This document shows, piece by piece, positions 5,322-27,531 of a stretch of 64,000 bases of DNA. The notes under the pieces were generated by a model that was not told where the DNA came from, did not search any database, and saw only the letters and a list, made by a program, of their open reading frames with translations. Origin of the DNA: an uncultured Actinomycetota bacterium. Its GTDB lineage: Bacteria; Actinomycetota; Acidimicrobiia; Spongiisociales; UBA5794. A program made the translations under genes and the position numbers. The DNA lies in NCBI GenBank assembly GCA_963836085.1, contig CAWIHT010000014.1, forward strand, positions 7,187 through 71,186, read 5' to 3'. The number at the start of each line of letters is the position of its first letter. Position 1 is the first letter of the stretch.

Positions 5322-7593
5322 CTACCGGAACGCTCGGTGGAGGAACGCTGCCATCTGACCCCGGGTCACATTCCCTTTCGGACAGAATCGGTCATTGGCC
5401 GGAGGGTTGCAGCCTTTCGTCACCCCAGCGTCCCAACCGGTCGATGTCGCCCTCGAAGACGCTGTCATCGTCGTCCGTGAATCGGTCTCCGCCACCGTCA
5501 TCGGTGTAGCCCAAGGCCCGGACGAGGAACGCTGCCATCTGTTCCCTGGTCACTCACCATCGGGACAGAACCGATCGTTCGCGGGCGGGTTCAGCCTTCG
5601 TGATACCGGTGGCCGATAGCCACGCGATGTCGACAGCGAAGGTAGAGACGTCATCGTCGGTGAAGTCGATCGGGTCGCCCGTTGGCTTGACGATGCCCTC
5701 CAGGGCACGATGGAGAAAGGTGGCCATCTCGCCGCGGGTACGACGGCGTCGGGGCAGAACCGGTCGTTGAACGGCGGATTGCAGCCTCTCGTGATTCCGG
5801 CCGCCGCCAACCACTCGATGTCGGCCTCGAACACCGAGCCGTCATCATCGCCGAAGCTGTCCGCACTCGGGTCCACGACGACGTCGAGGGGTCCGCCTAT
5901 GTCAACTACGTTCACCGTCACCTCGGCATCGATATCGTGGATCCCGTCGGACACCGTCACCGTTGCCGTGTGCTTGGTAGCGGTCTCGTAGTCCAGGCTT
6001 CCAATCAGGCTCACCGTCCCGGTCGTAGCTTCCACCTCGAGCAGTCTGCGCGTTGCCGGCAGTTATCGCATACGCCAGTGGATCGCCGTCAGGATCGCTC
6101 GCCTCGATCGCGCCGATCACGCCCAAGGACGTGTTTCGGGAAGCGATACCGTCAAGGCCTGGACGTGGGGCGGGATCCCGCAACGGTGTAGTTATGGGTC
6201 ACCGTTCGTGCATTTCTGGCTATGTCTGTCCAGCGACTTCGAAAACGTGAGCACCAGTCGTCGATGTGTCGATGGCAACCACACTCGACCGGTCCGACAG
6301 GACAGAAGGCCCGATCCGGCATCGCTGCACACGTAGCTAGCTATGACAACGGAATCGCGTCCGTACGTGGCCCCATCCGATGGGCTCACGATCGACACGG
6401 TCGGCCAGCATCGGCGAACACATGAACTGCCCCTCTGCGGCTGCCGGCTGCATCGTCGCCAGCAGCGCCAGCCACGATCCAACCGCTGTCCATCGCTACT
6501 GAGCCACCCAGACTGTCTTCAGCCGCGGCATTTGGATCGGTCAACTTGTGCACGTGCACCCAGTCTTTTTTTGACGACCCGGGCAAAGACGTGGACCACG
6601 CTATGTCAGTCGTCGTCGCCCACAGCTCCCGCCACCATCACATCACCCTGGATCGCGACCGACGCCCGCCCAAGAAGTCACCGTACTCGGGGCTGGGATG
6701 AACCAGTACCTGTTCTTGTCCCCAATGCCCAGTGATCGAATTCAATCTGAACACATGAACAGCACCTTCGACAGCAACGGCGTTGTATTGCCGAAAGCAC
6801 CGGCGACGATGCGATCGCCCTCGATTCCCACCGATTCGCCGAGTTGGGCTCCAAGGACGGCATCCTGTGTCGGTCAATTCCTGCTCATGCATTCTACATC
6901 TGGCTGGTCCAGGCGTCGAGGCTGAACAGATCAACGGCCCCTTCATTCACACTGCCGCCATCGTCGCCAGGAGCGCCGAGGACAATGCGGCCGTCGCAGA
7001 CAGCCACCGAAGAGCCGAGGAAATCGTTGTCTGCAGCAGTTGGATCGGCGAGGACTTGATCATGCTCCCAAACGCCGGTACCCGTATTGCGCAGTGAACA
7101 CATGCACGCCAGCCACGATCACGTCGCCCTGGATCGCCACCGTTGCACCAAGAGGATCCCCCTCCATACCCCCGGGCTTGGTCAGCTTCTGGTCGAATTC
7201 CCAGTCTCCAGTTGCAGAATCAGGCCGGAATACATAGAGGGAACTGGCGCCGGGGGTCCCGATAACGATCCGATCAGCATCGATCGTCACGGCCTTGCCG
7301 AAGAAGTCGTTCCAGTCGGTCTCCGGATTCGTCAACCGCTGATCGTGTTCGAACTCGCCGGTGGAAGGACTGCGGGTGAAGATGTGTGCCTCCCCCGGGC
7401 TCTCCTCGCCGCCGTAGGCGCCTGCAACGATCACATCTCCAGCGATTGCAACCGAGAGGCCCAATGCAGCCCAGTCCGCCGGGTCCGGGTCCGTCAACTC
7501 GGAATCATGCGCCCACGGTGAATCGGTCGCACTGAAAATTCCCGCGCCGACCACCCAACCCACCAGGGCTAGCAGTGCGACGATCAACATCAT
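5322..7593 (-). pseudogene. multiply frameshifted surface protein: signal anchor, FG-GAP-like repeats, cadherin-like domain, three Cys-containing SLH-like repeats
   Basis: ORF 7060..7662 has 'MMLIVALLALVGWVVGAG' plus repeated 'G.SVAI.GDVIVAGA...HIF / GKAVTIDADRIVIGTPG...LYVF'. The same repeat type continues in other minus frames (6894..7103, 6638..6946, 6386..6586). 'DPDGDPLAYAITAGN' and 'SLIGSLDYETATKHTATVTVSDG' follow, then three 'ITRGCNPP..RFCP..VTRG.MA.FL.RA' repeats with indels (e.g. 'ITKAEPARE' where ITKGCNPPAN is expected). The stop after '...AAFLHRAFR' is at 5322-5324. Confidence 0.6.
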
Positions 7594-9285: not shown

Positions 9286-9611
9286 GGTCGTTCAGACGTA
9301 GTCTTGCTGTCCATCGGCAGGCCTGTAGCCGACCATCAGAGCCGTTCGGCCCTTCGTGTTGCAGATTGGTCGGGTCGCATCTCTCTGGGACGCAAGACAT
9401 ACGTCAGCCACCGACCGGAAACCGTGTCGACGGTCTGTCCTCGCTGCCCATTCTCAGTGTCCCGGGAGAAGAGGCCGCGCTGCGGCGCGGGCCGTCTTCC
9501 CAGTCGCTGCCCAAAGGCCATTCCCCCCTTAAGCCTCTGGTCGCCAGAACTCGGTGAGCCAGGCTGTAGGTATCGTCGGCAGCGTTGCCAGAACAAGGAA
9601 GGGAGCATGCA

Positions 9612-10790
9612 GTGCGGAGGATTCTTCTCGCGGTGCTGGGCGTCGGCTTGAGCGCTGTGATGGTCGGCGCTGCATTGGCGGCGTTGCCGCCAGGTGGCAC
9701 CTTCACGGATGATGACGGCAACGTCCACGAACCGAACATCGAGGCGATAGCCGCCGAGAGCATCACGAAGGGGTGCAACCCGCCAGCGAACAGTCGCTAC
9801 TGCCCGGGCAGTTCGTTGACCCGGGGCCAGATGGCAGCCTTCGTGCGGCGTGCACTCGACCTTCCGGCGTCGAGTATCGACTACTTCATCGACGACAACG
9901 ACTCGGTGTTCGAAGGCGATATCAACGCACTTGCCGAAGCGGGGATCACCAGGGGCTGCAACCCGCCAACAAGCGATCGGTATTGCCCAGACGGAAGCAT
10001 CACTCGAGAGCAGATGGCAGCGTTCCTCCGACGCGCCTTCGACTACCCGGCTTCCGCAGGCGACTTCTTCACCGACGACGACGACTCGATCTTCGAAGCC
10101 GACATCAACGCCATTGCTGATGCCGGTGTCACGCTCGGCTGCAATCCCCCAGGCAACACTCGATATTGCCCATCGGACCTCGTGAAGCGGGATCAGATGG
10201 CGTCGTTCTTCGCCCGCGCCCTCGGTCTGAAGCCGATCTACCCGCCGCCACCAACGACGACGACCAGCACGACCACCACTCGACCGCCGACCTACACCAC
10301 GTTCGGCCCCGGCACACACCGCGTTGGTATCGACATCCCCGCGGGCACCTACCGAAACAGTGGCGACTTGTCCGGCTGCTACTGGGAACGACTCTCTGGC
10401 TTCGGCGGCACGTTCGACGACATCATCGCCAACAACTTCACGAACGTTCGACAGATCGTCGAGGTGAAGGCGTCAGATGCCGGGTTCAAGCCGGACGGAG
10501 ACTGTGGGCAGTGGTCGAGCGACCTGCGACCAGCCAAGGCTCCGACGGCGGGATTCGGAGGCGGCACCTGGCAAGTACCGAGCGAGGTGTCCCCTGGACT
10601 CTGGAGGAACACCCCAAGCGAAGCCGGATGCTACTGGGAAAGGCTTGACGGCTTCTCCGGCGAGTTCGACGACACCATCGCAAACGACTTCATCTCTGAC
10701 AAGGCATCGACCATCGTTCGCGTGGAAGCGAGCGACACTGGCTTCGGCGTTGATGAGGACTGCGGGGCCTGGACCTACCTGGGTCCGTGA
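9612..10790 (+). CDS. secreted protein: signal peptide, three Cys-containing SLH-like repeats, Thr/Pro linker, two 'CYWERL' C-terminal modules
   Basis: A GTG at 9612 lies 6 nt after 'GGAAGGGAG' (the track ORF starts at TTG 9585). Three 'ITxGCNPP...YCP...(T/K)R.QMA.F..RA' repeats are followed by a duplicated ~70-aa module with 'GCYWERL.GF.G.FDD.IAN.F'. Confidence 0.85.
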   Translation: MRRILLAVLGVGLSAVMVGAALAALPPGGTFTDDDGNVHEPNIEAIAAESITKGCNPPANSRYCPGSSLTRGQMAAFVRRALDLPASSIDYFIDDNDSVFEGDINALAEAGITRGCNPPTSDRYCPDGSITREQMAAFLRRAFDYPASAGDFFTDDDDSIFEADINAIADAGVTLGCNPPGNTRYCPSDLVKRDQMASFFARALGLKPIYPPPPTTTTSTTTTRPPTYTTFGPGTHRVGIDIPAGTYRNSGDLSGCYWERLSGFGGTFDDIIANNFTNVRQIVEVKASDAGFKPDGDCGQWSSDLRPAKAPTAGFGGGTWQVPSEVSPGLWRNTPSEAGCYWERLDGFSGEFDDTIANDFISDKASTIVRVEASDTGFGVDEDCGAWTYLGP

Positions 10791-10818: not shown

Positions 10819-11808
10819 TCAGGCGTGGTAGACCTGCCGGCCGGGAATGGCACCACGCACGCCACCGGCGGGATTGGGCACATCTCCCGCCCGTCGGGGA
10901 ATCAGGTGCGTATGCACGTGCCCGATGGTTTGCCCTGCAGCAACACCGTCGTTAACGCCGATGTTGAATCCCGCGACGGTCGGATCGATCACCTGAATCG
11001 AGGACCGGGCTGCCTGCACTAGCTGATCCACAGCAATCGCCTCTGGTCGGGTCAGGTCGAAGCTTGACGCTACGTGGCGTTTGGGGATTGCGAGCGTGTG
11101 CAGCGGCGTGACCGGGAACGCATCGCGGATGGCGAATGCCAAGCGATTCTCATCAACAACTCGCTCAGACACCTCAAAGCAGAATGCGCACCCCGCCTCT
11201 CGTTCCTCATAGACGGCATCAACCTTCCGGAAGTCGACGTCGTCTCGGTTGCCCTTGCTCTGATTGCACCGATAGCAAAGTGCCTGGAGATTATCGGTGT
11301 CATCGGGACCGCCGCGTGATCGCGGCATGATGTGATCGACCTCCAAGAATCGTTCGTCAGCTGGTACTCCGCACAACTCGCAGCGGAAGCGAGCGCTCTT
11401 CAGAACCTCATACCGTGCCGATCCGGGGATGTATCCTGATGTTCGGGCTCGGTGGCCCCATATCTCCTTGCCTCGCCGTTCGACGTAGTCGTCGAGGCGC
11501 GCCCTGCAGAGTTCCGTCAGATTGGCGAGCTGCTGGTCGTCCAGGTCAGCAAAGCCCCGCAAGACGTAGGAATCCCCGTCCTTGGCCACAACATTGTGCT
11601 TCCGAAGCACGCGGCCCGGCATCTGATTGACGATCCGCCGGTAGTAGTCGACTTGGCTTCGATCGTGCAAGACAAAGGCTGTGGCAATCTGCGCGACCGA
11701 CGCCGAGCCATTGCGTCGCAGAAGCTCCAGGAGCATCACCGGTTGATAGATGTGCGACATCCTCATTCGGTTTGCAACGAAGTCAGCTAGATCGTCGTAG
11801 TCCGCCAT
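10819..11808 (-). CDS. wHTH - HNH endonuclease - HIT hydrolase fusion protein
   Basis: Internal ATG at 11808 (MADYDDLADFV...). HNH: 'CELCG...VDHIMPRSRGGPDDTDNLQALCYRCNQSKGN'. HIT histidine triad: 'GHVHTHLIPRR'. The N-terminal 'SHIYQPVMLLELLRRNG...' resembles a winged-helix DNA-binding module. Confidence 0.8.
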   Translation of the reverse strand: MADYDDLADFVANRMRMSHIYQPVMLLELLRRNGSASVAQIATAFVLHDRSQVDYYRRIVNQMPGRVLRKHNVVAKDGDSYVLRGFADLDDQQLANLTELCRARLDDYVERRGKEIWGHRARTSGYIPGSARYEVLKSARFRCELCGVPADERFLEVDHIMPRSRGGPDDTDNLQALCYRCNQSKGNRDDVDFRKVDAVYEEREAGCAFCFEVSERVVDENRLAFAIRDAFPVTPLHTLAIPKRHVASSFDLTRPEAIAVDQLVQAARSSIQVIDPTVAGFNIGVNDGVAAGQTIGHVHTHLIPRRAGDVPNPAGGVRGAIPGRQVYHA

Positions 11809-12071
11809 CTCAGCGACAGTATCCCACCACGGACCCCAGGCTGTCGGCAGCCTTTGCTGGGTAGCTCTCGGCGGCAAGGCCGGTGACGGGTGCGTCGAGA
11901 GAGATGTCCCGGCGATCGTGGCACACTCGCTGATCTGAACGAGACGCCAAGACCCCTTCCTCATTCCGCCGTGAAGTACCTTGCAGCAGCGGCTCAGCAC
12001 CACCCGCAATCTCCACCTACGGTGACAGGGGGCCGAATCGTGCGGCCCGACCCACCGCAGCGCCCGATACG

Positions 12072-12785
12072 ATGCATCGCATGCAACCCGGCGACGTGAT
12101 CTCATACCTTGAAATGTGCACCAGAGAAGGGGCCTCGCTTCAGCGTGGAATGAACTTCCAGCTCGGTACCGATCACAGTGTGGTCCTGATGAGTGTTCGT
12201 CCTGGTGCCCCCTATCACGATGAGGTCATCGACGAGGGTCGAACGCTCATCTACGAGGGCCATGATGAACCGAGCTCGTCCCGCGTGCCAGATCCGAAGA
12301 TTGCCGATCAGCCACTCCGGACTCCGAACGGAACGCTCACGCAAAACGGCCGCTTCTATCGGGCAGCGGAGAGCTACCGGAATGGAAACAGTGCGGCCGA
12401 ACGAGTGCGCGTCTACGAGAAGGTCCGCCAGGGGATTTGGGTGTACGCGGGGCTCTTTCACCTTGTGGATGCCTGGCTTGAGGAGTCAAATGGACGGCGG
12501 GTGTGCAAGTTCAAGCTCTCGCTCGTCGAGGGCGCACTCGACATGGACCTTCCGGACGACGAGGGCCGTATCCAGGATCTCGCACACACTCGGGTCATCC
12601 CCACGCATGTGCGCCTAGCGGTTTGGGCCCGGGACCGGGGCCAATGTGTGGAATGCGCGGCAACGGAGAACCTGCATTTCGACCACATCATCCCATACTC
12701 CAAGGGTGGCTCGTCGCTCACCGCTGAGAACGTCCAGCTCCTGTGCGCCCGACACAATCTGGCGAAACGGGATCACATCGGGTAG
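12072..12785 (+). CDS. SRA/PUA-like modified-base-reader domain fused to HNH nuclease (putative type IV, modification-dependent restriction enzyme)
   Basis: The C-terminal HNH is 'CVECAATENLHFDHIIPYSKGGSSLTAENVQLLCARHNLAKRD'. The N-terminal ~160 aa has an SRA-like layout ('SVVLMSVRPGAPYHDEVIDEGRTLIYEGHD...DQPL...VRVYEKVRQGIWVYAGLFHLVDAW'). An alternative start lies at 12081. Confidence 0.7.
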   Translation: MHRMQPGDVISYLEMCTREGASLQRGMNFQLGTDHSVVLMSVRPGAPYHDEVIDEGRTLIYEGHDEPSSSRVPDPKIADQPLRTPNGTLTQNGRFYRAAESYRNGNSAAERVRVYEKVRQGIWVYAGLFHLVDAWLEESNGRRVCKFKLSLVEGALDMDLPDDEGRIQDLAHTRVIPTHVRLAVWARDRGQCVECAATENLHFDHIIPYSKGGSSLTAENVQLLCARHNLAKRDHIG

Positions 12786-12889: not shown

Positions 12890-13399
12890 CTACGACTCGC
12901 ACCCAATTCCGTCCTTGTCCCCATCGAAGCGATGCGGGTCCGGGGGAAGGACCGTGAACCGCTTTCGACTGATGTCGCCACAGTTCAAGTCCGGCGGTGA
13001 CGGCGGAATGCAGAAGTCCGGATACGACGGGTGACAGTTCTGCTGGACTGTGGTGGTGGTCGTGGGAGCCGCAGTAGTTGTGGTTGTAGGCGGTGTCGTC
13101 GTCGTGGTTGTCGGAGGAATCGTGGTTGTGGTCGTTTGAGCAACAGTGGTGGTCGTTACTGGGGCAGTGGTGGTCGTCACTGGGGCAGCAGTTGTCGTGG
13201 TAGTCGGAGCAGAGGTCGTTGATGCCGGTTCGGACGAAGTCGTCGCAATCGGCACGGCGGCGGCAACCGGCGCTGGCTCGACGGCTCCCGATCCGCTTTC
13301 GCCGATGAGACCCCCCGCCACACTGAGTGCGACAACCCCTCCAGCGACGCCCATCGCAGACTTCTGCCAGACGCTTCGATTGCCCCACCAGGTGGACAT
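12890..13399 (-). CDS. membrane-anchored protein with Thr-rich linker and C-terminal Excalibur calcium-binding domain
   Basis: N-terminal TM 'AMGVAGGVVALSVAGGLI', a long T/P tract, and a C-terminal 'DPHRFDGDKDGIGCES' matching the Excalibur DxDxDGxxCE signature. Confidence 0.75.
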   Translation of the reverse strand: MSTWWGNRSVWQKSAMGVAGGVVALSVAGGLIGESGSGAVEPAPVAAAVPIATTSSEPASTTSAPTTTTTAAPVTTTTAPVTTTTVAQTTTTTIPPTTTTTTPPTTTTTAAPTTTTTVQQNCHPSYPDFCIPPSPPDLNCGDISRKRFTVLPPDPHRFDGDKDGIGCES

Positions 13400-13881
13400 C
13401 AGATCTCGCCTGCGAACGATCGGTTCAGGTGCGGTTCCATTGATGTGCTATCGGCATCAAGGAGGCAGATAGTGAGGTCATCGCTGAGAATGCCGGTATG
13501 ACCTGGACCAATCGACAGCGAGAGACCGGTCGCTACCGCTTCTCGGCACTCCCCCGCACCTCGTTCTGCTGGGTACCGAGCGGCGTTCTCCTCGAACTTG
13601 GCCCAGAAGGCGTCGTTCAAGTCGATCTCGAGAAGGTCGGCAATACGCACGACGTACTGCAGGATGTCGACGAGTTCCTCGCCGACATGCTGGAGCACCT
13701 GCCCGTCGACGTCTCCCGACTCGCCTGGAGTCAGCCATTGGAAGATCTCGAGCAATTCGCCCACCTCGCCGGCGAGCGCCATCGAGAGGTTCTTCGGGGT
13801 GTGAAACTGCTCCCAGTCGCGTTCGGCGGCGAAGACTCGTAGGTGTTCAGCCACCTTGTTCAGATCCAACGGCTCGGTCAC
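13399..13881 (-). CDS. MazG-like all-alpha NTP pyrophosphohydrolase (dCTP pyrophosphatase-1-like)
   Basis: 'FHTPKNLSMALAGEVGELLEIFQW...VGEELVDILQYVVRIADLLEIDL...NAARYP'. The GTG start overlaps the DUF2075 stop (GTGA, 13878-13881). The last ~45 aa look unnatural. Removing one base from the C5 run at 13550-13554 gives '...YPAERGAGSAEKR*' ending at 13532, the usual family length. Confidence 0.8.
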   Translation of the reverse strand: MTEPLDLNKVAEHLRVFAAERDWEQFHTPKNLSMALAGEVGELLEIFQWLTPGESGDVDGQVLQHVGEELVDILQYVVRIADLLEIDLNDAFWAKFEENAARYPAERGAGECREAVATGLSLSIGPGHTGILSDDLTICLLDADSTSMEPHLNRSFAGEI

Positions 13882-15830
13882 GCCTCCACCTCCTCCGCTA
13901 CCCCGGCTCCCTGTTCTGCCGCCGCCGCGTCCGCGAACATACTGCGACGCACCGCTTGGAAGTCGACCCTCGACTCGAAGAACTTCCGGGTCGGCTCATC
14001 TTCGAAGTAGATGTAGCAGCCCTTCATACCTCGGGTCAGGAGAACCCGATATGTCTGCTTGACAAGTTCCGTGAATCGGTCGTCGTCCTTCTCTCGCTTG
14101 ACCATGCTGTCCTTCGAGAACTCTCGCTGCCCGATCCAGCCCTCGCGGCCTCGATGCACGAGGTCCCTGCCGAAGATGACGCCTACGTAGTCGACTTCGA
14201 ATCCCTGGGCTGTGTAGACACAGCCCACTTGATCCAGACCTCCGGGTTCCGAGACCCAGAAGTCTGACTTCGGAATGCCCTTCGCGAGGCCCGTAGCACC
14301 GGACTTGGCGTTCCACGGCATCGACCAATCTGGCAACTGAACGTCATGTACGAGTGTGCCGTCGTCATTGGGGACTGACCACGGCCAGCAGAAGCCGGCG
14401 ACCAACCGCGCGGACTGGCCCGTCGCGGCCTTCTGGTTGATCAGCGCCTGGAGTTCCCCAGGCGAATCGACAATGTCGAAATCGAAGGCGGCGTCACCCT
14501 CCCACAGAACGCTCGTAGTCCGGCGAAGGTCCAGCGTGTTGTCGACCCAGGAGACGAATCCGTCGGACCCTCCGCATCGGAACTGAATGTCGAGCTCGTA
14601 CTCCAAGAGCTCCGCACCCATCTTGGCTGCGTGGGACTTGATGAGATCCTTGCTCCCAACCTCGCCCGGCCGCACGACCTGGAGATCGTCAATGAAGAAC
14701 ACCGCCACCTTCGCAGTGTCGATCAGTTCCTCGATCTGGGGGCGGGTGGACCGGTTCGCCTTCTTGGTGAACCGATTGTTGCTGGACTCGCGTATCCGGT
14801 GAGCTTCGTCGCAGATCAATACGTCGAGGGTGTTCGGGTCGGCCGTGGCGTAGGTGTTGAAGTAGTTGAATTGGGCGGAGGCTTGCTTCCCGACCTTCTT
14901 GCGGATGTTCGAGGTGAAGGCTCTCGATCCCGTTGCATGCTGCGTGCTGTATCCGTTGGCGGATAGCTCTGCGACGAGGTTCAAGGCGATGACCGACTTC
15001 CCTGTGCCGGGCCCTCCGTCGACAATGAACACCGAGTTGCCAGCCTTCTGGTGTTGCTCGGCAACCTTGGCGATGACCGTGTTGAACACCACCTTCTGTT
15101 CATCGAGCAGGACGTACGTCGGTTCGCCCTTGATCATCTGTGCGGTGTGGTCGAGGAGCTTCTTCGAGGGGTGGTACTTGCCGGCCAGGATGCGGTCCAG
15201 CACCGGCACCCCGTTGCCACCTCCGAGCCGCTCGTCCAGGTGGGTCGCCAGTGACGAGATCTGGTCTCCGGTGAAGACGGGATAGACCTGCAGCAAATCG
15301 GCGTGACGTGGAGCGAACACCTCATCGTCGTCATCCCGGACCATGTTGTGCAGGAAGCTGCACGCCTGCAATCCGACCTCGTCCTCGGAGAACGTGCTGT
15401 GGGTGTCCTTCAGGTAGCGGTGATAGCCACCGACCTGCGCGGACGGATGGAGAACTTCACGCTTGCGTCCTCCAACGAACGTCAGCACACACTCCTCGGC
15501 CGTCGACGGCGACGACTCACTCCACTGCTTGAGTTCAACGATGACGGCGTTCGATCTGCCTTCTGGGGTCGTACCCGAGATGAGAACGTCGAGCCGGCGC
15601 GAGGCAAGCGGCAACTGCCACTCGACGACGACGCCGTGATCGTTGAGCCCGGCGAGTTGCACGGCATCAGCCATTGCCCGCAGCGAGTTGCGCCACGACG
15701 CCACCTCGCTCTTCGGCGCCTCGTACCGAAATGCCTGGACGAACGATGCGGAGACCTTGTCAGCGATCAGGTTCTGCGTGGCGTCGGAGACAAACTCGGT
15801 GGATGTGCCGGTGTAGAGATGCATCGGCAT
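13878..15830 (-). CDS. DUF2075-family (Schlafen-helicase-like) ATPase with N-terminal PD-(D/E)xK-like nuclease module
   Basis: 'RRLDVLISG...AVIVELKQW' is a nuclease-like D...ExK motif. Walker A is 'VDGGPGTGKS' and Walker B 'VLICDEAHR'. C-terminal 'YTAQGFEVDYVGVIFG...TYRVLLTRGMKGCYIYF' is typical of DUF2075. Confidence 0.85.
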   Translation of the reverse strand: MPMHLYTGTSTEFVSDATQNLIADKVSASFVQAFRYEAPKSEVASWRNSLRAMADAVQLAGLNDHGVVVEWQLPLASRRLDVLISGTTPEGRSNAVIVELKQWSESSPSTAEECVLTFVGGRKREVLHPSAQVGGYHRYLKDTHSTFSEDEVGLQACSFLHNMVRDDDDEVFAPRHADLLQVYPVFTGDQISSLATHLDERLGGGNGVPVLDRILAGKYHPSKKLLDHTAQMIKGEPTYVLLDEQKVVFNTVIAKVAEQHQKAGNSVFIVDGGPGTGKSVIALNLVAELSANGYSTQHATGSRAFTSNIRKKVGKQASAQFNYFNTYATADPNTLDVLICDEAHRIRESSNNRFTKKANRSTRPQIEELIDTAKVAVFFIDDLQVVRPGEVGSKDLIKSHAAKMGAELLEYELDIQFRCGGSDGFVSWVDNTLDLRRTTSVLWEGDAAFDFDIVDSPGELQALINQKAATGQSARLVAGFCWPWSVPNDDGTLVHDVQLPDWSMPWNAKSGATGLAKGIPKSDFWVSEPGGLDQVGCVYTAQGFEVDYVGVIFGRDLVHRGREGWIGQREFSKDSMVKREKDDDRFTELVKQTYRVLLTRGMKGCYIYFEDEPTRKFFESRVDFQAVRRSMFADAAAAEQGAGVAEEVEA

Positions 15831-16358: not shown

Positions 16359-17448
16359 GTGAGCGACACTGTCTGGGCACTCGAACCCCATACCCGTGCG
16401 AAGCACGAAATCCTACGCCGATACCTCGCCGCTTGGTACCCGATCATGGCGAGCAACCAGCTCAGAATCGTCTACCTCGACGGATTCGCGGGTCCGGGCG
16501 TGTACGAAACGGGTGAGGTAGGTTCACCGAATCATCGCGTTGGAGACTCTGCTGGACTCCGCAGCCTTGACCATGCCGGGGCGAGGGTTCACGTTCCTCT
16601 TCATGGAGGAACGAAAGGATCGGGCGGAACGTCTCGAAGCGGAGATCGAAACGCTGTGGTCACGCTCCGGAGCGAAACCAACGAACGTTGGCGTGGATGT
16701 CTGGAATACAACCTTTCAGCATGGTGTAGATGGCATCCTCGACATCCTGTCCGGCGAGCGGCTCGCTCCAACCTTTGCGTTTGTAGACCCGTTCGGGTGG
16801 TCCGGGGCACCGATGGAGGTGATGGCTGCTCTCCTGAACAGCAAGTGCGAGCTCCTCTTCACGTTCATCTACGATCAGACGAGTCGTTTCATTGGGCATA
16901 CCAACGAGAAGGTCATCGCCCACCTGGAAGGCCTCTTCGGTTCCTCAGGTTTCAGAGACGCATCTTCCCTCAGCGGCGAGGAACGAAAGCTCTCTCTCTT
17001 GGGACTGTTTGAATCCCAGCTACGGGATGACGCTGGGTTCGAGTATGTGCATTCGTTCGAGATGATCAACGAGCGCGGCAAGACCCCATACTTCCTCATC
17101 CACGCCAGCAATCACATCAAGGGCGCTGAGAAGATCAAAGACGTGCTCTGGAGTATGGACCCGACCGGTGACTTCACGTACTCGTCGTTGATCGATGGCC
17201 GGCAGATGCGTTTCAACGACGAGATCGACATTGGACCTCTCGTGGAAGCGATGACTCGCGAGTTCGGCGGTGGCTCGGCGCCGATCAGGACAGTGGAGGA
17301 CTTCGTTATCGGCGACACGCCGTTCGCCAAGAAGCATGCTCGACAGGCACTCAAGATCCTGGAAGCATCTGAGAAGATCACCGTCGCGAACCGTCGAAGG
17401 CGCAATACTTACCCACCAGGCAGTTCAATCACCTTTGGGCGGTTCTAG
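16359..17448 (+). CDS. tcmP: three-Cys-motif partner protein TcmP-like, with an apparent 1-nt frameshift near 16530
   Basis: The N-terminal frame reads 'WALEPHTRAKHEILRRYLAAWYPIM...VYLDGFAGPGVYETGEVGSP', then the frame of ORF 16540..17448 continues 'IIALETLLDS...FAFVDPFGWSG...'. An extra A in 'ccgAAtc' (16530-16531) separates the two. Family recognised from memory (TIGR04474-type). Confidence 0.7.
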
Positions 17449-17510
17449 GGCGACGGCGACGGCGCTGTGTCGGGGCCACTCAACTCAGCCATGCCAAGAG
17501 GGAGGCGCGG

Positions 17511-18260
17511 ATGAGCAAGACCGGAATCGAGTGGACCGAACACACCTGGAATCCCGTGACAGGCTGCGACAAGGTATCCCCGGGGTGCGACAACTGCTAC
17601 GCAGAGCGCATGGCCCATCGATTGCAGGCCATGGGTTCGAGTCGCTACGCAGACGCCTTCCAGTTGACTCTCCATGAGGACAAGATCGACGAACCGTTGC
17701 ACTGGGGCAAGCCGCGGATGGTGTTTGTCAATTCGATGTCCGACCTATTCCATCCCGCGATACCGGATGATTTCCTGTGGCGAGTGCTTGCGGTCATGTC
17801 GGAGGCCACGCGGCACACATTCCAAGTCCTGACGAAGCGGCCCCAGAGGGCAGCGCTGCTCCTCGAGGGTCAGCGGCTACCCGACAACATCTGGCTTGGT
17901 ACGAGCATCGAAACTGAGACATATGCATTTCGAGCCGACCACCTACGAAGAGTGGCTGTGGCGACACGCTTCCTCTCTTGCGAGCCACTGCTAGGACCTT
18001 TGAGCAACCTCGATCTGAGTGGCATCTCCTGGATCATCGTCGGAGGAGAATCAGGCCCGGGGCATCGGCGGATGCAATCGGCGTGGGCACGCGATCTTCG
18101 AGACCAGGCGACCGCATCCGGTACCTCATTCTTCTTCAAGCAGTGGGGCGGTCACACGTCCAAGGCAGGCGGTCGAAACCTTGATGGCCGCGAGTGGCTC
18201 GAGTTGCCCACCGTGCGCGGGCGGCACGCAACTCAATCTCAGGCGGCTTCCAACCGATAG
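17511..18260 (+). CDS. DUF5131 / phage Gp37-Gp68 family protein (N-terminal three-Cys motif)
   Basis: 'IEWTEHTWNPVTGCDKVSPGCDNCYAE', 'VFVNSMSDLFH', 'FQVLTKRP', 'FLSCEPLLGPL...WIIVGGESGP...FFFKQWGG' match the family hallmarks. Confidence 0.85.
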   Translation: MSKTGIEWTEHTWNPVTGCDKVSPGCDNCYAERMAHRLQAMGSSRYADAFQLTLHEDKIDEPLHWGKPRMVFVNSMSDLFHPAIPDDFLWRVLAVMSEATRHTFQVLTKRPQRAALLLEGQRLPDNIWLGTSIETETYAFRADHLRRVAVATRFLSCEPLLGPLSNLDLSGISWIIVGGESGPGHRRMQSAWARDLRDQATASGTSFFFKQWGGHTSKAGGRNLDGREWLELPTVRGRHATQSQAASNR

Positions 18261-18313
18261 CAAGGCATGAACACCTCGCCGACGCCCACAGAAGTGATCT
18301 CGGGCACAACACT

Positions 18314-19467
18314 ATGAACATTGTCGCGATCGTCGGCAATGGTGCCTCAATCGTCTACAACCCTTCCTTCGCCCTCGGAGCGCTCACCTATGAGGTGCTC
18401 GATCGATTCAGCAGCGAGAGCGTGAATGCCTTCACCGTGGAGCGAACCCTCTCTGATCTGGCCCGGGCAGCTCGAACTTCGGGGTTGAGCGACGGGTTGT
18501 CTTTCGAGGAGCTGCTCGGGCCATTCGATCGAATGGCCGATGGAATCGATGCAATGCGAAACGTCGCTCGCTACGTGCCAGGCGGCCTCAGGTATCGTGA
18601 TGATCTCGAATCCGCGACGGTATTCGGACGAAAACTGTATCGCCGCTCGGTGGGCACGGCGCTCCAAGTGATCGCAGAACTGAGCCACGATCAGGGTCCT
18701 GATCCGCTAGCGGAGTCGGGCAAACTCATCGGGTACCTTGCAGACCTCGTATCGGGCGGTGGCGTTGTTCGGGCGTTCACGTTGAACTACGACTGCCTCG
18801 TTGATTCCGCTGCACTTGAGCTGCACGAAGATGCGCAATCACCAATCTGCCTGAGCGATATGGCTGACGGGAGGCATCAATCGGACATCGACATCCTCAG
18901 ATCAGGCGACTACAGATCAGCGTCGGCTCTCCCCCTCAGAAGCTCTGACGAGGAGTACCTCGGTGGACCTTCGGCCATCGTCGTATACCACCTTCACGGC
19001 GCGCTCGACTGGGTTCGCGACCACAGTGGCAAGGTCTGGAAGATCAAATCTGTCGATCACCTGCGAGCGGCCAACTTCTGGCATCGGTATCCGCGAGGCG
19101 GCGCATTGGTCTCTCCTGTCGTTGTTCTCACAGATCAGAAGGCGCACTACATCGAGGGTGACCCGTTCGCATGGGCCTACCGGAGGCTTCCGTACGGTGT
19201 TGGGACCTCAGCGACGTGCCCCCTGACCTCGTGCTTATTGCTGGCTATGGCTTCGGAGACCTACCACTGAACCTCGCCCTCGCCGAAACCCTCCCTCTGA
19301 CCAACTGCCCCATCGTGGTGATAGGAAAGGCAGAGAGTCGGACAGGCCTGCGTCGAGTTGTCCTGAGCGGACTCGGGCTTCGGGGATCAGAGCAACGGTC
19401 CGTGGCCGGTCGTCTGCAAGTGCTGATTGAGGGCCTGCCGGACTCATTGTCTCAGATTCAGATCTGA
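18314..19467 (+). CDS. SIR2-like (SIR2_2/DSR-type) domain protein, with an apparent frameshift near 19202-19204
   Basis: Internal ATG at 18314: 'MNIVAIVGNGASIVY'. Motifs 'FTLNYDCLVDSA' and 'VVYHLHGALDW'. After 'AWAYRRLPYGVG' the sequence continues in the frame of ORF 19171..19467 ('DLSDVPPDLVLIAGYGFGDLPLN'). Adding one G to the GGG run restores one frame. Confidence 0.7.
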
Positions 19468-19977
19468 GTACCGGCAAAGGGTTGGGCGGGGAAACAGAAG
19501 GTCGGCCAAGACTCCTGGGTTGGAATGGGTCCAGCCTCTGGTCAGCCAATCTGGATGACGAGGCGCCTCGGATCGGGCCAGGGGCGCGGGAGAGGCGAGC
19601 GATTCCTCCTCGTCGAATGTGTCGACAAGGGTGGCACGACTAGCCTCGAAACTCGTCGTCAATCGTCCACCGCTAGGCCGCACCACAAGGAAACGCGTGA
19701 TGCCGTCCCAGAACCTTCTCCGTACGCAGGCTCCTTCATCCAACCACGCTTTTCGTCAGAAGCGTCGCATCAAGTTCCGATCGGCGGATCTGCTGTCGCC
19801 CAGCGCGCACGCCGGGAGTTGGACGTGACCTCAACCAAGTCAGCAACCGCCGAGTGACGCCACCTCAACTCCACCACTCAACGGAACACTGCCAAGGTCA
19901 GGGGTCTCGTGAGGTCTGGCAGTCAGTCCTGGCGCTGTGGGGATTGGTAGCCTCTGTTGAGCGATTGGAGGATCGCG

Positions 19978-21459
19978 ATGACCAGGCTGGAGATTCAGAA
20001 CCCGCGGACGGGGCGGTGGTCGGGTCGGTGCCGGTCGCAACTCCGGATGAGGTCCGAACTGCTGTCGAGGACGCTCGCGGGGCCTTCGTCGATTGGTCTG
20101 CGTTGAGCCACGCCGAGCGGCGACCGTTCCTGAAGGCGTTCAAGCGTGTCGTGGTCGCCAATGCAGACCACATCGCCGATGTGGTGTGTTCCGAGACGGG
20201 GAAGGACCGTGTCGACGCCTATACGAGTGACATCATGCCGGCGCTATCCGTCATGGATTACTACGCCCGGAAGGCCGGCGAGCTGCTCAAACCGGTCTCG
20301 GGGGGATGGTGGCCCTACCCCATGGTCAAGCGCTGGACCGAGTACCACCCACGAGGGGTGGTCGGGGCGATTACGCCGTGGAACGTCCCGTTCTTCCTGA
20401 CGATGCTCCCGGTGTTCACCGCGGTAGCGGCCGGCAACGGGGTGGTGGCCAAACCATCAGAGATCACCCCGCTCAGTGGGCAACTGTGTGTTGAGCTCGC
20501 CGCCGAGGCCGGGTTGCCGAAGGGTCTGATACGAGTCGTGCATGGAGCCGGGGAGACGGGGCAGGCCCTGATTGCTGCGCCGGTGGATATCGTGTGGTTC
20601 ACCGGTTCCACCGCCAACGGGCGCGCAGTGGCCGTCGCGGCGGCCGAGAGACTCATACCGGTCGTTCTTGAACTCGGTGGCAACGACGCGATGGTCGTTC
20701 TCGAGGACGCCGACCTGCGAGCGGCCGCCCAGTGCGCAGTGTGGGCGGCCACCTACAACGCCGGTCAGATATGTATGTCCGTCGAGCGGGTCTATGTCCC
20801 CGAGTCCGTCTACGAACCGTTCCTTGCCGAGATCGATGCGGCCATGGAGAACGTCGCCGCCGGTACAGGTGACAATAGAGGATGTCGGCGCCATCACCGA
20901 TCCCCGCCTACTCGACGTGCTCGACCGTCAACTCGCAGATGCTGTGGCCAAGGGTGCCGAGATCCGATGGGGTGGATCCCGGGTCGAAGGAACCGAGGGG
21001 ACCTTCTTCGCACCCACCGTGCTGACAAAGGTGGATCACTCGATGGACCTGATGCAGGGGGAGACTTTCGGTCCGGTGCTGCCGGTCATGGCAGTGCCGG
21101 ACGAGGACACCGCTCTGCAGCTCGCAAACGCAGGGAGCTTCGGGCTGCATGGATCTGTGTGGTCGGCGGACAAGAAGCGCGCCGCGAGATGGGCCTCCAA
21201 GATCGAGTCCGGAACTGTGGCCGTGAACGATCACCTCATCAATCCCTTCATCCCGGACCTCCCGTTCGGGGGGATCAAGGACTCGGGCTACGGCCGAGAA
21301 CTGGGACCAGAAGGGATTCGAGAGTTCTGCTACATCAAGAGCATCACTTCACCGCGGCTGATTCCCACGACACGACTGTTGGGCGGCTTGCGATGGATGC
21401 CGCGTCGGCTCGGAGCCCGGTACTGGCGAGCCGTGGCGAAATCGCTATTCCGCTGGTGA
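19978..21459 (+). CDS. aldehyde dehydrogenase family protein, with two apparent frameshifts (about 20010-20013 and 20874-20875)
   Basis: The ATG at 19978 lies 5 nt after GGAGGA ('MTRLEIQNPRTG'), then the frame shifts to 'AVVGSVPVATPDEV...'. Motifs 'ELGGNDAMVV' and 'NAGQICMSVERVYV'. The second frame reads 'IEDVGAITDP...GETFGPVLPVM...FGLHGSVWS...PFGGIKDSGYGRE'. Confidence 0.85.
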
Positions 21460-21895: not shown

Positions 21896-22910
21896 TCACT
21901 CTTCTGTCAGAAGCCGCGCCGCCTCCATGATGCGATCTGCGCTGGGAAGGACCCGGTCCTCGAGGTGCCGGGCATAGGGGATGACCGATTCGCTGCCGAT
22001 GCGGCCGAAGCGCACGGTCGTGCCGGATTCGGCAATCAGGGCGGCGATCTCGCCGGAGAGCCCGAAGGCGAGGTAGTCCTCGTCGACGACGAGGACCCGG
22101 CCGGTATGGCGGGCGGCCTCGAGGATGGCGGTGCGGTCGAGAGGTACCACGCTGCGCAGGTCGATGACAGCGGCGTCGATGCCCCGGTCGGCAAGTTGCT
22201 CCGCCGCTTCGAGGGAGCGATGGACACCGACCCCGAGGCTCAGGATGGTTAGGTCCGCGCCATCCCGTCTCGTGGCCGCCGTACCGATCGGGACGACGCG
22301 CAGCGGCGAATTGACTTCACCGCGGGCTCCGGCGGAGGGCACGTCGAAGGTCACGGTTGTGCGGTCCGATCCGCCCATGAACTGCAGCCACTGTTGCGAT
22401 AGCAGTTTGTGTTCGAGGAATACGACCGGTCCGTCGTGCTCCAGTGCGGCGAGCATGAGACCGGCACCGTCGGCGGGCGTGGAGGGGACCACAACGGTGA
22501 GACCGGGGATTCCGGCAAGGAGTCCCCACAGCGACTGCTCGTGCTGTCCTGCGTCTCCGTATCCGCCGCCACATGCCGACCGGATCACCATCGGGACGTT
22601 CACGATTTCCGCCGGAGAGCGTCTTGATCATGGCGGCTTCATTGAGGATTGCGCTCATCGCGACGCCGATGAAGTCGACGAGCATGATCTCTACGAGGGG
22701 CCGAAGTCCCGCCATCGCGGCGCCTACGGCGGCGCCGAGGAATGCCGACTCGCTGATGGGGGTGGCCCGAACCCGGTCGGGTCCGAAACGGAGCAGCAAG
22801 CGGCGACGGAGAATGGGGACGTCCTCGCCGAAGACGATGATCCTTTCGTCGGCGGCCATGGCGGTCGCAATCGCTGTGTCGATGGCCTCACCGAACTCAA
22901 GTGTTGTCAT
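21896..22910 (-). CDS. 2-oxoacid (pyruvate/acetoin/branched-chain) dehydrogenase E1 beta subunit, with an apparent frameshift near 22604-22608
   Basis: The N-terminal part 'MTTLEFGEAIDTAIATAMAADERIIVFGEDV...PISESAFLGAAVGAAMAGLRP...' lies in one frame. The rest, 'VNVPMVIRSACGGGYGDAGQHEQSLW...', is ORF 21896..22603. The start overlaps the E1 alpha stop (ATGA, 22907-22910). Confidence 0.85.
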
Positions 22911-24031
22911 TGTTCGTCCCGGAGAGTGTGCAGGGCGGAGGCCACGGCGGCGTCGATTTCGTCGGCAGCCGTGGTTGTGATCCGCCGCCGAGTGTCTGCG
23001 GGCAGACGCCGGGCGGCGGCACGAAGCGGATCTCTGCTCTTGACAAGTCGATGCACTGCCAGGCGGCCGATCGTTGAGCTCATCGTGAGCAGCCCGGAGA
23101 GGCGATCCCGCGTGGGTCCTCCAATCGGGTCGCGCAGCGCCGCGATCATGTCGGGTATCTCCGCTCTCAGGCTCGCCGGGTGTGCCGCGGCTCGCATCAG
23201 AGGGTCGTCTTCGAAGTGACCCGTGGGTCGCCAGCATGACGCAACCAGGAACCCAGGTCCTCTGCCCCGGCGAGCGTTGCTGATCAATCTGCCGGCAGCG
23301 CTCCACACCCTGTCCACCCTGGCGCCGTTCACCTGAACTGCGGGCATACCGAAAGCAGCGGCCCTGCGCTGAATCCGACCACCGGTCATCGTCGATGTCC
23401 GCGTGGTGATCGCCCAGGTGCTGTCCTTGCAGACGAACACCACCGGCAGGCGCCACACGACCGCGAGGTTGAGCGATTCCATCAGCATGCCCTGGTTCAC
23501 GGCGCCTTCACCAAAGAAAGCAATAGCCACCCGCCCCGGGCCGGTGGCCGAGAGAGCCAGTGCGAAGCCGCACGCCGTGGGTCCCGATGCCCCCACGATG
23601 CCGGAGGATGCGGCCATGCGGTCGGGGTCGAAAAGGTGCATGTGCCCGCCGTGGCCCCGGCAGAGGCCTTGGTCGTGTCCCAGCATCTCCAGGATGAGCC
23701 GGGTGGGGTCGGTCCCGCTGCCGATTAGTGCTGGAGTCGGCCGATGGTCAAGAGCTAGGCCGTCTCCGGGGCCGAGGTGTTCGATGACCCCGGCGGCGAT
23801 GGCTTCCTCGCCAATGCCCAGGTGTAGCTCACCGGAAATCAACCCCTGTTGCCACAGGGCAGCGAGCGCCTCCTCGAAGCAGCGCATCCGCACCATCTGG
23901 CGGTAGAGCCGCTCCAGCGGCACCGGGGAGCGGTCACCCAACTCCATGAGGTCAGCATACGCTGATGCAGTCGAGGGGATGGTTGGAGTGGCGTTCACCG
24001 TCACCCAGATATCGCCGTTCATCCACCGCAC
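22907..24031 (-). CDS. thiamine-diphosphate-dependent 2-oxoacid dehydrogenase E1 alpha subunit
   Basis: 'LYRQMVRMRCFEEAL...GELHLGIGEEA', 'GIVGASGPTACGFALA' and 'AIAFFGEGAVNQGMLMESLNLAVVWRLPVVFVC' are typical E1 alpha motifs. The true start may be an internal Met (e.g. 'MELGDRSPV'). Confidence 0.85.
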   Translation of the reverse strand: MRWMNGDIWVTVNATPTIPSTASAYADLMELGDRSPVPLERLYRQMVRMRCFEEALAALWQQGLISGELHLGIGEEAIAAGVIEHLGPGDGLALDHRPTPALIGSGTDPTRLILEMLGHDQGLCRGHGGHMHLFDPDRMAASSGIVGASGPTACGFALALSATGPGRVAIAFFGEGAVNQGMLMESLNLAVVWRLPVVFVCKDSTWAITTRTSTMTGGRIQRRAAAFGMPAVQVNGARVDRVWSAAGRLISNARRGRGPGFLVASCWRPTGHFEDDPLMRAAAHPASLRAEIPDMIAALRDPIGGPTRDRLSGLLTMSSTIGRLAVHRLVKSRDPLRAAARRLPADTRRRITTTAADEIDAAVASALHTLRDEQ

Positions 24032-25146: not shown

Positions 25147-26799
25147 CTACCACCAATCATCGTATTCGGAGTCTTGAGTTGGGATAGGTCCAACGATGGG
25201 GGCGAGTCGCCCGACGGTTCCTGAGCACGACCAGTCGGACCCGAATGCTCCGCTGCACGTCCACTCCCACGGGTCCGATGGGAAGACGCTAGCGGAGCAG
25301 GAAAGTGCGGTGCCGCTGCCGCCATCGCATTCCCAGGTTTCGTTCTCCGAGTCGCTCTTGTCGATGTTGCCTTCGGCTTCGAATGACGTGTTTGAACCGT
25401 ACTGCACAACTGACCAGGATTCATCCGCACTATCGCTGGTGTCGATGTTCCCTGTACACAGGGAATCACCGAGTTCGGCGTCGCAGGCCCAGGTTTCGAC
25501 ACCGCTACCGCTAGGACGTTTGTCGATGTCGCCGGAACAGGCCCACGATATGGGATCGCGACCGAGCGGGTCCCCAGACGGCGTGCACGTCCAAGTCTCG
25601 ACGGCAGTGTCGAGGGTGTCGGTATTTCCCGAACAATCCCGAGACCCGTCGGGATTGACCGTGCAGTCCCAGGACACGTTCGGAAGAGTGGTTGTTGTGG
25701 TCGTCGTTGTTGTGGTCGTTGGCACGGATGGGATGGCGGACAGCTTGAAGTTGTCGCGCAGCAGGAGATTCTGGAGTTCATCGCCCGAAATGCCTGCCCA
25801 CATCTCGAGACTGTGCCAGCCGGGATCCCGGTCTTCTCCGTTGACGTAGAAGTAGAACGTCCAACCGATCGGGGAACTGCCGATGTAGTGGTAGTCCGCG
25901 GCTGTGCAATTGCCTGACACCGGACAGCTGCTCACCGGGCTGCCAGCCGGGCCGAGCCACCGGAACGAAACGACATTCGGCCACGACGCCTGCGCCCATG
26001 TCGAGTTGTACACGGTCGCAGCGACGCACCGCTGATCAAGGGAGAACTCCTCTCCAGTCGTCGCCGTGTCACATGCTCTGAATGTCACAGACGGACCAAA
26101 CTCGGGCAGCGTCGTTCCGGTGGTTCCCCCCGTTGTCGAGGTTGTCGTCGAGTCCGGGGGTGGCGGTGTGATCGGTGCGAGCTTCAGTGCCCGTGAGAGG
26201 AACGACGCCATCTGATCGCGCAACACCGGACTGGTCGGACAGTACCGGTCATTCGTCGGAGGGTTGCAGCCCCTCGTCACACCGGCCGTACCGAGACGAT
26301 CGATGTCCGCCTCGAAGATACTGCCATCGTCATCGACGAACAGATCACCGCCCCCGTTGTCGGTGTAACCGAAGGCACGGACAAGGAACGCAGCCATCTG
26401 GCCACGCGTGACCTTGCCATCGGGACAGTACAGGGTGTTCGTGGGCGGGTTACAGCCCCTCGTGATCCCCGCAGCAGCCAACCGATTGATGTCACCCTCG
26501 AACGTCGTGCCGTCGTCATCCAAGAAGAAATCCGTGGCCGTAGCGGGGAGACTCAACGCGCGAGTCAAGAACGCAGCCATCTGGCCCCTGGTCACTGTTG
26601 ACGCCGGGCAGTACAGGGTGTTCGCTGGCGGATTGCAGCCCTTCGTGATCCCTTCGGCGGCGATCGCCTCGATGTTGCCCTCATGGATGTTCCCATCATC
26701 GTCGGTGAACGTCCCACCAGGCGGCAACGCCGCCAACGCGGCACCAACCACCACCGCACACAGGCCGACAACTAGAACAAGAAGAAACATCCGCCGCAC
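25147..26799 (-). CDS. secreted protein: signal peptide, three Cys-containing SLH-like repeats, central domain, C-terminal W-x-C repeat array
   Basis: The GTG at 26799 ('VRRMFLLVLVVGLCAVVVGAALAALPPGG') parallels the start of 9612..10790 (an ATG alternative is at 26790). Three SLH-like repeats, a TTTTT linker, and 5-6 short 'ETW.C...C.GNID' repeats in the last 176 aa. Confidence 0.85.
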   Translation of the reverse strand: MRRMFLLVLVVGLCAVVVGAALAALPPGGTFTDDDGNIHEGNIEAIAAEGITKGCNPPANTLYCPASTVTRGQMAAFLTRALSLPATATDFFLDDDGTTFEGDINRLAAAGITRGCNPPTNTLYCPDGKVTRGQMAAFLVRAFGYTDNGGGDLFVDDDGSIFEADIDRLGTAGVTRGCNPPTNDRYCPTSPVLRDQMASFLSRALKLAPITPPPPDSTTTSTTGGTTGTTLPEFGPSVTFRACDTATTGEEFSLDQRCVAATVYNSTWAQASWPNVVSFRWLGPAGSPVSSCPVSGNCTAADYHYIGSSPIGWTFYFYVNGEDRDPGWHSLEMWAGISGDELQNLLLRDNFKLSAIPSVPTTTTTTTTTTTLPNVSWDCTVNPDGSRDCSGNTDTLDTAVETWTCTPSGDPLGRDPISWACSGDIDKRPSGSGVETWACDAELGDSLCTGNIDTSDSADESWSVVQYGSNTSFEAEGNIDKSDSENETWECDGGSGTALSCSASVFPSDPWEWTCSGAFGSDWSCSGTVGRLAPIVGPIPTQDSEYDDWW

Positions 26800-27531
26800 A
26801 ATTGCCCCTATCTCACGACACTCAAATCCACCAACAGCCTCACCGCCAACTCGAATCGAAACCAGAGGCAAGAGACCCGAAACACTCCACAACAACCGAA
26901 GAAACAACAGCCCACATAGGAGATTCAATATGGGCGGCATGCTTGAGTTGTCGATCTTGCCCACAGGCGCATCCACGAGTGCCCACAATGGGCCGAACCA
27001 CCGGTGGCCAAGATCTGGTCAAGGTCGAATCGTCGAGGCAGGCGACGTGTCCGCCGAACATGCTCGAGGCCGTCTCAACGGTCAGTTGCCAGCCGGTCCG
27101 AGGACCGTCGATCGATCCGCAACACAGCAACCAAAGGTGCAATGCGTGCGCCAGGACCGCACGAATTCGCCACACATGTGCGGCGCCCCCTGCGCACCGT
27201 TTCCGACTTCTGGCGAGGATCGTTGCACCTGAGCGACGCGGTTCAGACTGATCCGGCTTGCTGAATCGTCGACCAGCGCACACGCCCGGGCGGGGCCGCC
27301 CCATGGCCCGCAACGGATCCGGACTCCGGCAAACAGCCCAAAGTCGGCACGCTATCCCGACGAAGCGTTGCGACTCGAATGTCCAATCGTCGAGCGCCAC
27401 TCGACCGGATCCAGAATTGGCGCTCGCCCACCCAAGTCGGTCAATAATCGGCGGTCGCGTCGCACATCGAGACACCCGTTGCAGGAATTGCGGGGCTGGT
27501 CGGCTCGACAGGTGTGAGGTAGGGTCGGCCG

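Follow-up and report, generated by a model that had tools for sequence, protein, structure and literature searches.

A TcmP-DUF5131 gene pair and a divergent SIR2-type gene, probably two independent modules, lie side by side in an actinobacterial defence island

Three adjacent genes on contig CAWIHT010000014.1 of an uncultured Actinomycetota bacterium (assembly GCA_963836085.1) are described here. The stretch of DNA that was analysed, hereafter the window, covers 64,000 nucleotides (contig positions 7,187 to 71,186), and the three genes are co-directional on its + strand at 16359-19467. The first is tcmP (three-Cys-motif partner), which starts with GTG at 16359, ends at 17448 and contains a +1 frame switch at 16530/16531. 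The second, at 17511-18260, is intact and encodes a protein of 249 amino acids (aa) of the DUF5131 or phage Gp37-Gp68 family. The third starts with ATG at 18314, ends at 19467, is frame-broken between 19188 and 19223 and encodes a divergent SIR2_2-type protein of ~383 aa that is a putative NAD+ hydrolase (NADase). The genes are separated by 62 and 53 nt. A first-pass annotation, made by reading the DNA by eye, had described the same open reading frames (ORFs) and gaps, and the peptide motifs that it quoted are all present in the three translations.

The DUF5131 gene has a Shine-Dalgarno sequence (GGGAGG) 6 nt upstream, and no obvious Shine-Dalgarno sequence was found in front of the start of the SIR2-type gene. 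The G+C content is 0.587-0.597 at 16-19 kb, 0.60-0.63 in the rest of the first 20 kb and ~0.65 further on, so the dip across the trio is genuine, though small. It is clearer in the G+C content at third codon positions (GC3), which is 0.716, 0.704 and 0.612 for the three genes in order and 0.79-0.86 for gltB and other long ORFs. The lower G+C content of the trio had been proposed earlier from two hand counts, 30/60 at 16864-16923 and 38/60 in a gltB stretch at 57001-57060, and both counts are exact. A scan of 15.7-20 kb gave no terminator-like sites, a promoter consensus scan around the trio gave no sites, and neither a tRNA search nor an Rfam search marks the trio. Direct and inverted repeats that might mark an insertion were sought in the flanks of the trio and gave only chance-level matches.

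The first gene is a TcmP, as had been proposed. After repair of the frame, the protein scores 184.3 bits against TIGR04474 (tcm_partner; cutoff 53) over model positions 1-261 of 263, and it matches the PADLOC profiles PDC-M30A (1.5e-61) and PDC-M41A (2.2e-10). In an alignment with 21 homologues (alignment A3) the repaired protein shows no gap and no loss and keeps all invariant residues. A C-terminal winged helix is suggested at residues 278-343 by a match to GMT-wHTH (PF22560) of 24.9 bits, below the cutoff of 27. The AlphaFold2 (AF2) model has a mean predicted local distance difference test (pLDDT) value of 89.1 and the fold of a class I S-adenosylmethionine (SAM) methyltransferase. When the model was searched with Foldseek, SAM methyltransferases were returned, and the best match by template modelling (TM) score was E. 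coli RlmJ (6qe5, TMt 0.54, 314 aligned columns). The sequence carries a glycine-rich motif I, DGFAGPG, and a motif-IV-like VDPFGW that resembles D-P-x-aromatic. A sequence search of the TcmP profile against solved structures gave no meaningful match; its hits to isocitrate dehydrogenase are short local similarities and were disregarded. TcmP is thus methyltransferase-like, as the first reading had it, with an RlmJ-like SAM-methyltransferase fold in its structural model, and methyl transfer is its predicted activity.

The identity of the second gene is equally firm, with 324.2 bits against PF07505 (DUF5131) where the Pfam cutoff is 28.9, and with PADLOC matches to PDC-M41B (1.7e-105) and PDC-M30B (3.6e-101). 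It also matches phrog_2045, a family of unknown function. In the DUF5131 alignment (alignment A2) the three cysteines of C19-x6-C26-x2-C29 and the GGESG motif at G178-G-E-S-G182 are invariant. The match to TIGR04471 (radical SAM mobile pair protein A) is weak, at 67 bits, and falls below the cutoff of 355. According to RadicalSAM.org, DUF5131 is Megacluster-5-2 of the radical SAM superfamily (PMC9477430). A sequence search of the DUF5131 profile against solved structures gave no meaningful match. The earlier description of a three-Cys, radical-SAM-like protein therefore agrees with both the invariant residues and the published classification, and the protein is predicted to belong to the radical SAM superfamily and to carry out [4Fe-4S]/SAM chemistry.

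The assignment of the third gene to SIR2_2 stands in part. With 14.7 bits (E 0.034) it does not reach the gathering cutoff of PF13289, which is 24.5. Yet all 14 of its aligned relatives match that profile at E<=1 (best 2.8e-9), and the family profile finds solved SIR2 proteins in the PDB, with E 1.7e-14 for 8yhx. The AF2 model (pLDDT 85.8) is placed by Foldseek with the SIR2 subunit of E. coli SIR2-HerA (E 2e-12, TM 0.55-0.59) and also matches sirtuins (E ~1e-4). Family invariants include G8-N-G10, N158-Y-D160, H228-G and G311-Y-G-F-G-D316, and intact homologues of 382-387 aa (P0002-P0006) share 45-55% identity with it. On fold and on the catalytic N, D and H residues the protein is a member of the SIR2 superfamily, in a divergent SIR2_2 branch below Pfam's own threshold. 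An exhaustive profile search at E<=1e-30 collected 245 clusters at 50% identity for this subfamily of ~380 aa, which is small but real. Because the NAD+-site residues of defence sirtuins are kept, depletion of NAD+ is the default mechanism to be predicted for it.

We next consider where these genes occur elsewhere, since the proposal that they form one system depends on it. The TcmP-DUF5131 pair is widespread. Relatives of TcmP number in the thousands and are found in 103 plasmids, and DUF5131 is found in at least 579 viral contigs and 172 phage genomes. An adjacent TcmP is present at 34 of 80 viral DUF5131 loci, in three different arrangements, and an adjacent DUF5131 at 13 of 16 viral TcmP loci. 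The same pairing is seen in L024-L034 and L136. In the closest TcmP relatives (58-70% identity; L027, L028, L031 and L136) the two genes are co-directional, TcmP first, with gaps of 21-70 nt, and what follows the pair is a convergent or unrelated gene. In actinobacterial plasmids the two genes converge or diverge, and their neighbours are genes for zeta toxin, Wadjet, ImmA/IrrE or PIN. The pair is also present in the temperate Gordonia phage Easley (NC_070814.1, 4983-7474), as DUF5131 (gp38) and TcmP (gp39, annotated 'methyltransferase'). There it lies inside the integrase/repressor module, between integrase, helix-turn-helix (HTH) and metalloprotease genes on one side and the immunity repressor gp40 on the other, and the start of TcmP is 4 nt past the stop of gp40 on the same strand. 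This position suggests a moron that is expressed in the lysogen. Tested against the PADLOC candidates PDC-M30 and PDC-M41, the window has both the A and the B component, adjacent to each other, with component A frameshifted in the assembly. The first-pass annotation had called it a conserved pair of unknown function. As a candidate it is already catalogued, with PADLOC-DB listing it as PDC-M30/PDC-M41, and our literature search found no paper that gives a function, phenotype or mechanism for TcmP, DUF5131/Gp37-Gp68 or PDC-M30/M41. We regard the pair as an autonomous, mobile two-gene unit that is common on phages and plasmids.

The SIR2-type gene has a different distribution. No member of its family was found in 2.9 M viral contigs, and one of 72,556 plasmids carries one. 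A scan of genome contigs with the SIR2 alignment gave six loci with relatives, and a scan of metagenomes gave 13, mostly short. In L001 (4211-7128), and with the same genes in L002, the relative is co-directional with a TIR gene (397 aa, CAP12-PCTIR_TIR) and a gene for a 148-aa Cys-rich Zn-ribbon protein; this arrangement looks like Thoeris, with a SIR2 effector that lacks the SLOG domain. A TIR_2 gene adjoins the relative in L004 (416-2759) and a TIR_2/ThsB_TIR gene in L018 (405-2186). In L005 (2191-5186), from an Acidimicrobiia metagenome-assembled genome (MAG), the relative follows Prok-E2_E and ThiF/E1 genes, and in L021 (1132-1569) its neighbours are likewise of the Prok-E2_E/ThiF type, with a ThiF-like gene beside it. 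The neighbour in L016 is a giant helicase-nuclease of 1584 aa (DUF4011-helicase-MTES_1575), and ImmA/IrrE-type regulators lie near the relatives in L116/L117 and L115.

Co-occurrence was examined in both directions. A SIR2-like ORF was sought at E<=10 in loci with TcmP and/or DUF5131 (L024-L034, L136, 80 viral DUF5131 loci and 16 viral TcmP loci), and none was found in any of the ~105, the closest relatives of the pair included. The reverse test covered 26 loci that hold relatives of the SIR2-type gene. Every ORF of L001-L023 was scanned with phmmer and, for L115-L117, the gene tables were read; neither TcmP nor DUF5131 turned up in any of the 26. The first-pass annotation had joined the three genes into one candidate system, and had itself taken a lack of synteny elsewhere as a sign of chance adjacency; such a lack is what both sets of loci display. 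A recurrent TcmP-DUF5131-SIR2 system is not supported, as the three genes do not co-localise elsewhere. The accompanying model, a sensor pair coupled to NAD+ depletion, is left with the adjacency in this single window and no co-occurrence elsewhere.

Our preferred reading, which we hold to be likely, is that the locus consists of two independent defence-island modules that are adjacent and co-directional by happenstance. The adjacency can be ascribed to the clustering of genes within defence islands because the genes do not co-occur elsewhere, their GC3 values differ and the SIR2-type gene lacks a Shine-Dalgarno sequence. The first module would be the TcmP-DUF5131 pair of the PADLOC candidate type PDC-M30/M41, a self-contained two-enzyme unit that probably acts on nucleic acid, most likely DNA. 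Modification of DNA or another nucleic acid is suggested because a SAM-methyltransferase fold with a winged helix-turn-helix (wHTH) is combined with an enzyme of the radical SAM superfamily. The pair would be expressed by its carriers (prophages, plasmids and islands) and might protect the lysogen, that is, serve in defence, or might mark DNA. The second module would be a solitary divergent SIR2_2-type protein, which, among solved structures, is most closely related to the NADase subunits of SIR2-HerA. Once triggered, it may hydrolyse NAD+ and thereby cause abortive infection, and its triggering partner, if it has one, would be something other than TcmP or DUF5131.

Several points weigh against two independent modules. 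The SIR2 profile is subfamily-specific, and a very distant SIR2 beside other TcmP pairs may have escaped it. The range of genomic contexts is limited, since short contigs are frequent among the metagenomes and readable downstream DNA was available for four of the closest TcmP relatives. Additionally, relatives of the SIR2-type gene nearly always end short co-directional clusters whose upstream genes differ, which makes partner swapping plausible. Lastly, the SIR2-type gene could be co-transcribed with the pair, from which it is separated by 53 nt on the same strand with no terminator-like hairpin.

The alternative that survives best is that the locus is a decayed relic, in which the indels are real, TcmP and the SIR2-type gene are pseudogenes in a degrading region and only DUF5131 may be functional. 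The two frameshifts noted earlier in the trio are present as described. A Viterbi path based on codon usage, trained on the long ORFs of the window, switches frame at 16530/16531 and at 19200/19201. The break in TcmP consists of one extra base near 16530 (...TCACCG[A]ATCATC...), and removal of exactly one base repairs it, with GSP reading on into IIALETLL. The break in the SIR2-type gene (19188-19223) can be explained by one missing base (404 bits after repair) or by two extra bases (410 bits), a difference of 6 bits that is too small to choose between them in view of how many alternatives were tried. Frame switches in the window cluster in 1-23 kb. They also affect an aldehyde dehydrogenase gene (19854-21459, switch at ~20874), a 2-oxoacid dehydrogenase E1-beta gene (21896-22911, switch at ~22614) and a PD40/cadherin-like/SLH surface-protein gene (2860-4300, at least three switches). 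Between 24 and 64 kb no convincing frameshift was found, and long ORFs there, gltB (1535 aa) among them, are intact. An extra A at GAATC/GAAATC, seen in TcmP and E1-beta, was considered as a basecalling artefact at a methylation motif; this explanation was rejected as the sites in the aldehyde dehydrogenase and SIR2-type genes do not have the motif.

The confinement of the switches to 1-23 kb fits relaxed selection on accessory genes, as would be expected of a relic. The repaired frames of TcmP and the SIR2-type gene, on the other hand, contain no further stops and keep all family-invariant residues, so that any inactivation must be very recent, and each indel is a single base within a short run. 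Furthermore, the E1 gene and the SIR2 relative of L005 are both frame-broken as well, a pattern that consensus errors typically leave in metagenome assemblies, and strain-variable accessory regions are the ones that polish worst. The breaks are either an error of the assembly consensus in a strain-variable region or a very recent inactivation. We give the relic serious weight, and lean somewhat against it.

It is also conceivable that the SIR2-type gene once supplied the effector of a Thoeris-like TIR-SIR2 system and was orphaned when its TIR gene was lost or displaced as the pair landed upstream. The adjacent TIR genes of three distinct relatives (L001/L002, L004 and L018) favor this idea. 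Against it, tblastn found no remnant of TIR, the 148-aa partner or E1/E2 in the window (nothing below E 0.04, neighbours of other TcmP loci included), no TIR gene lies in the available flanks of L115, L116/L117 and L011, and no signal-binding domain, SLOG or other, is recognised in the protein. We consider this origin unlikely.

Quite unlikely, in our judgement, is a genuine three-gene operon in which TcmP and DUF5131 modify or sense nucleic acid and turn on the SIR2 NADase as effector. The close co-directional spacing without a terminator-like site speaks for it, as does the fact that the GC3 of all three genes lies below that of the host genes. The modules upstream of the subfamily also vary from locus to locus (TIR, E2/E1, helicase-nuclease), as they would for an exchangeable effector. 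These observations are set against zero co-occurrence in both sets of loci, with the closest relatives of the pair lacking SIR2; against the GC3 of 0.61 for the SIR2-type gene versus 0.70-0.72 for the pair, with no Shine-Dalgarno sequence before the former; and against the convergent, divergent and tandem layouts in which the pair is found without a third gene. A real three-gene system would tie an abundant, uncharacterised phage and plasmid pair to a readable output, the depletion of NAD+. A one-off functional coupling in this window, with the SIR2 subfamily acting as an exchangeable NADase effector for widely differing sensor modules (TIR plus a Zn-ribbon protein, E2/E1, a giant helicase-nuclease, ImmA/IrrE) and here for TcmP-DUF5131, we regard as more doubtful still, and it would, if true, give the first hint of what the pair senses or produces.

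The region at 10.8-19.5 kb is a defence island. The earlier view of a defence-type setting is borne out by the neighbours, which are an HNH + HIT protein (10819-12105, - strand; PF01844 2e-15, PF01230 2.2e-17), a SAD/SRA + HNH protein (12072-12785, + strand; PF02182 2.8e-9, PF01844 8.3e-8), a MazG-like NTP pyrophosphohydrolase (13399-13881, - strand; PF12643 25.7 bits, PF03819 22.4 bits) and a helicase-type ATPase of the Schlafen-group-3/DUF2075 type (650 aa; 13878-15830, - strand; PF09848 306 bits). The helicase gene is divergent from tcmP, with a spacer of 528 nt, and stands outside the trio; its PADLOC matches, to PDC-S41, Nhi and AbiO, are weak. An overlap of 4 nt between the MazG-like gene and the stop of the helicase gene looks like translational coupling, and these two genes may be a separate defence pair. 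The HNH + HIT and SAD/SRA + HNH genes are divergent and overlap by 34 nt at their 5' ends. The latter has the architecture of a modification-dependent restriction enzyme and lies ~3.6 kb upstream of the putative nucleic-acid-modifying pair.

Other genes in the window encode secreted or surface proteins. At 12890-13399 on the - strand lies a gene for a secreted Thr/Pro-rich protein with an Excalibur-like end, DGDKDGIGCE, and within that gene an imperfect tandem periodicity of 18-30 nt is seen at 13053-13228 (repeat family D1). The surface proteins encoded at 3434-4276, 5553-6062, 9585-10790, 25147-26988 and 28707-30431 form a paralogous family, dispersed across the window, with shared repeat modules that follow the pattern 'DDDGS.FE.DI..L...GIT.GCNPP.N..FCP...VTRGQMAAFL' and give weak SLH scores.

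With two independent modules, the window adds one further, frame-broken instance each of the candidate pair PDC-M30/M41 and of a small SIR2 subfamily. The analysis also yielded several by-products. These include the RlmJ-like fold for TcmP, the location of the pair beside an immunity repressor, which suggests a lysogen-expressed function, and the small SIR2 subfamily recurring beside TIR and E2/E1 genes, which may deserve a study of its own.

The two modules can each be compared with known systems. Type I Thoeris consists of ThsB, a TIR protein, and ThsA, a SIR2-SLOG protein. The point of contact is that TIR genes adjoin some relatives of the SIR2-type gene, whereas the window has no TIR match and the protein has no detected SLOG or Macro domain, so the locus cannot be classed as Thoeris. 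With the SIR2 subunit of SIR2-HerA (Nezha) the protein shares the SIR2 fold, the GxG loop, the N/D and H residues and a length of ~380-400 aa. It differs in that no HerA-like gene flanks it, as judged from ORFs, Pfam and PADLOC; across the window, no partner or domain of the HerA, TIR, SLOG, Macro or Argonaute type was found. The defence SIR2_2 NADases of DSR, ThsA and SIR2-APAZ are its broader kin, as indicated by the profile match to solved defence SIR2 proteins. Identity to the solved SIR2 proteins is only 14-16%, and NADase activity is a prediction for this protein.

With the RlmJ-type class I SAM methyltransferases, which form m6A, TcmP shares the fold, the glycine-rich motif I and the D-P-x-aromatic-like motif IV. 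The identity to RlmJ is 11% and the Foldseek E value ~1e-4, and motif IV of TcmP lacks the second proline. TcmP additionally has a wHTH and a neighbouring gene of the radical SAM superfamily. The closest counterpart of the pair as a whole is PDC-M30/PDC-M41. The locus departs from these two-gene candidates in the broken frame of TcmP and in the SIR2-type gene that comes after the pair and that the catalogued unit does not include. The likeness lies in the full-length matches of both subunits, the setting in a defence island or mobile element, and the tandem order with a spacing of ~60 nt that is also seen in the closest relatives.

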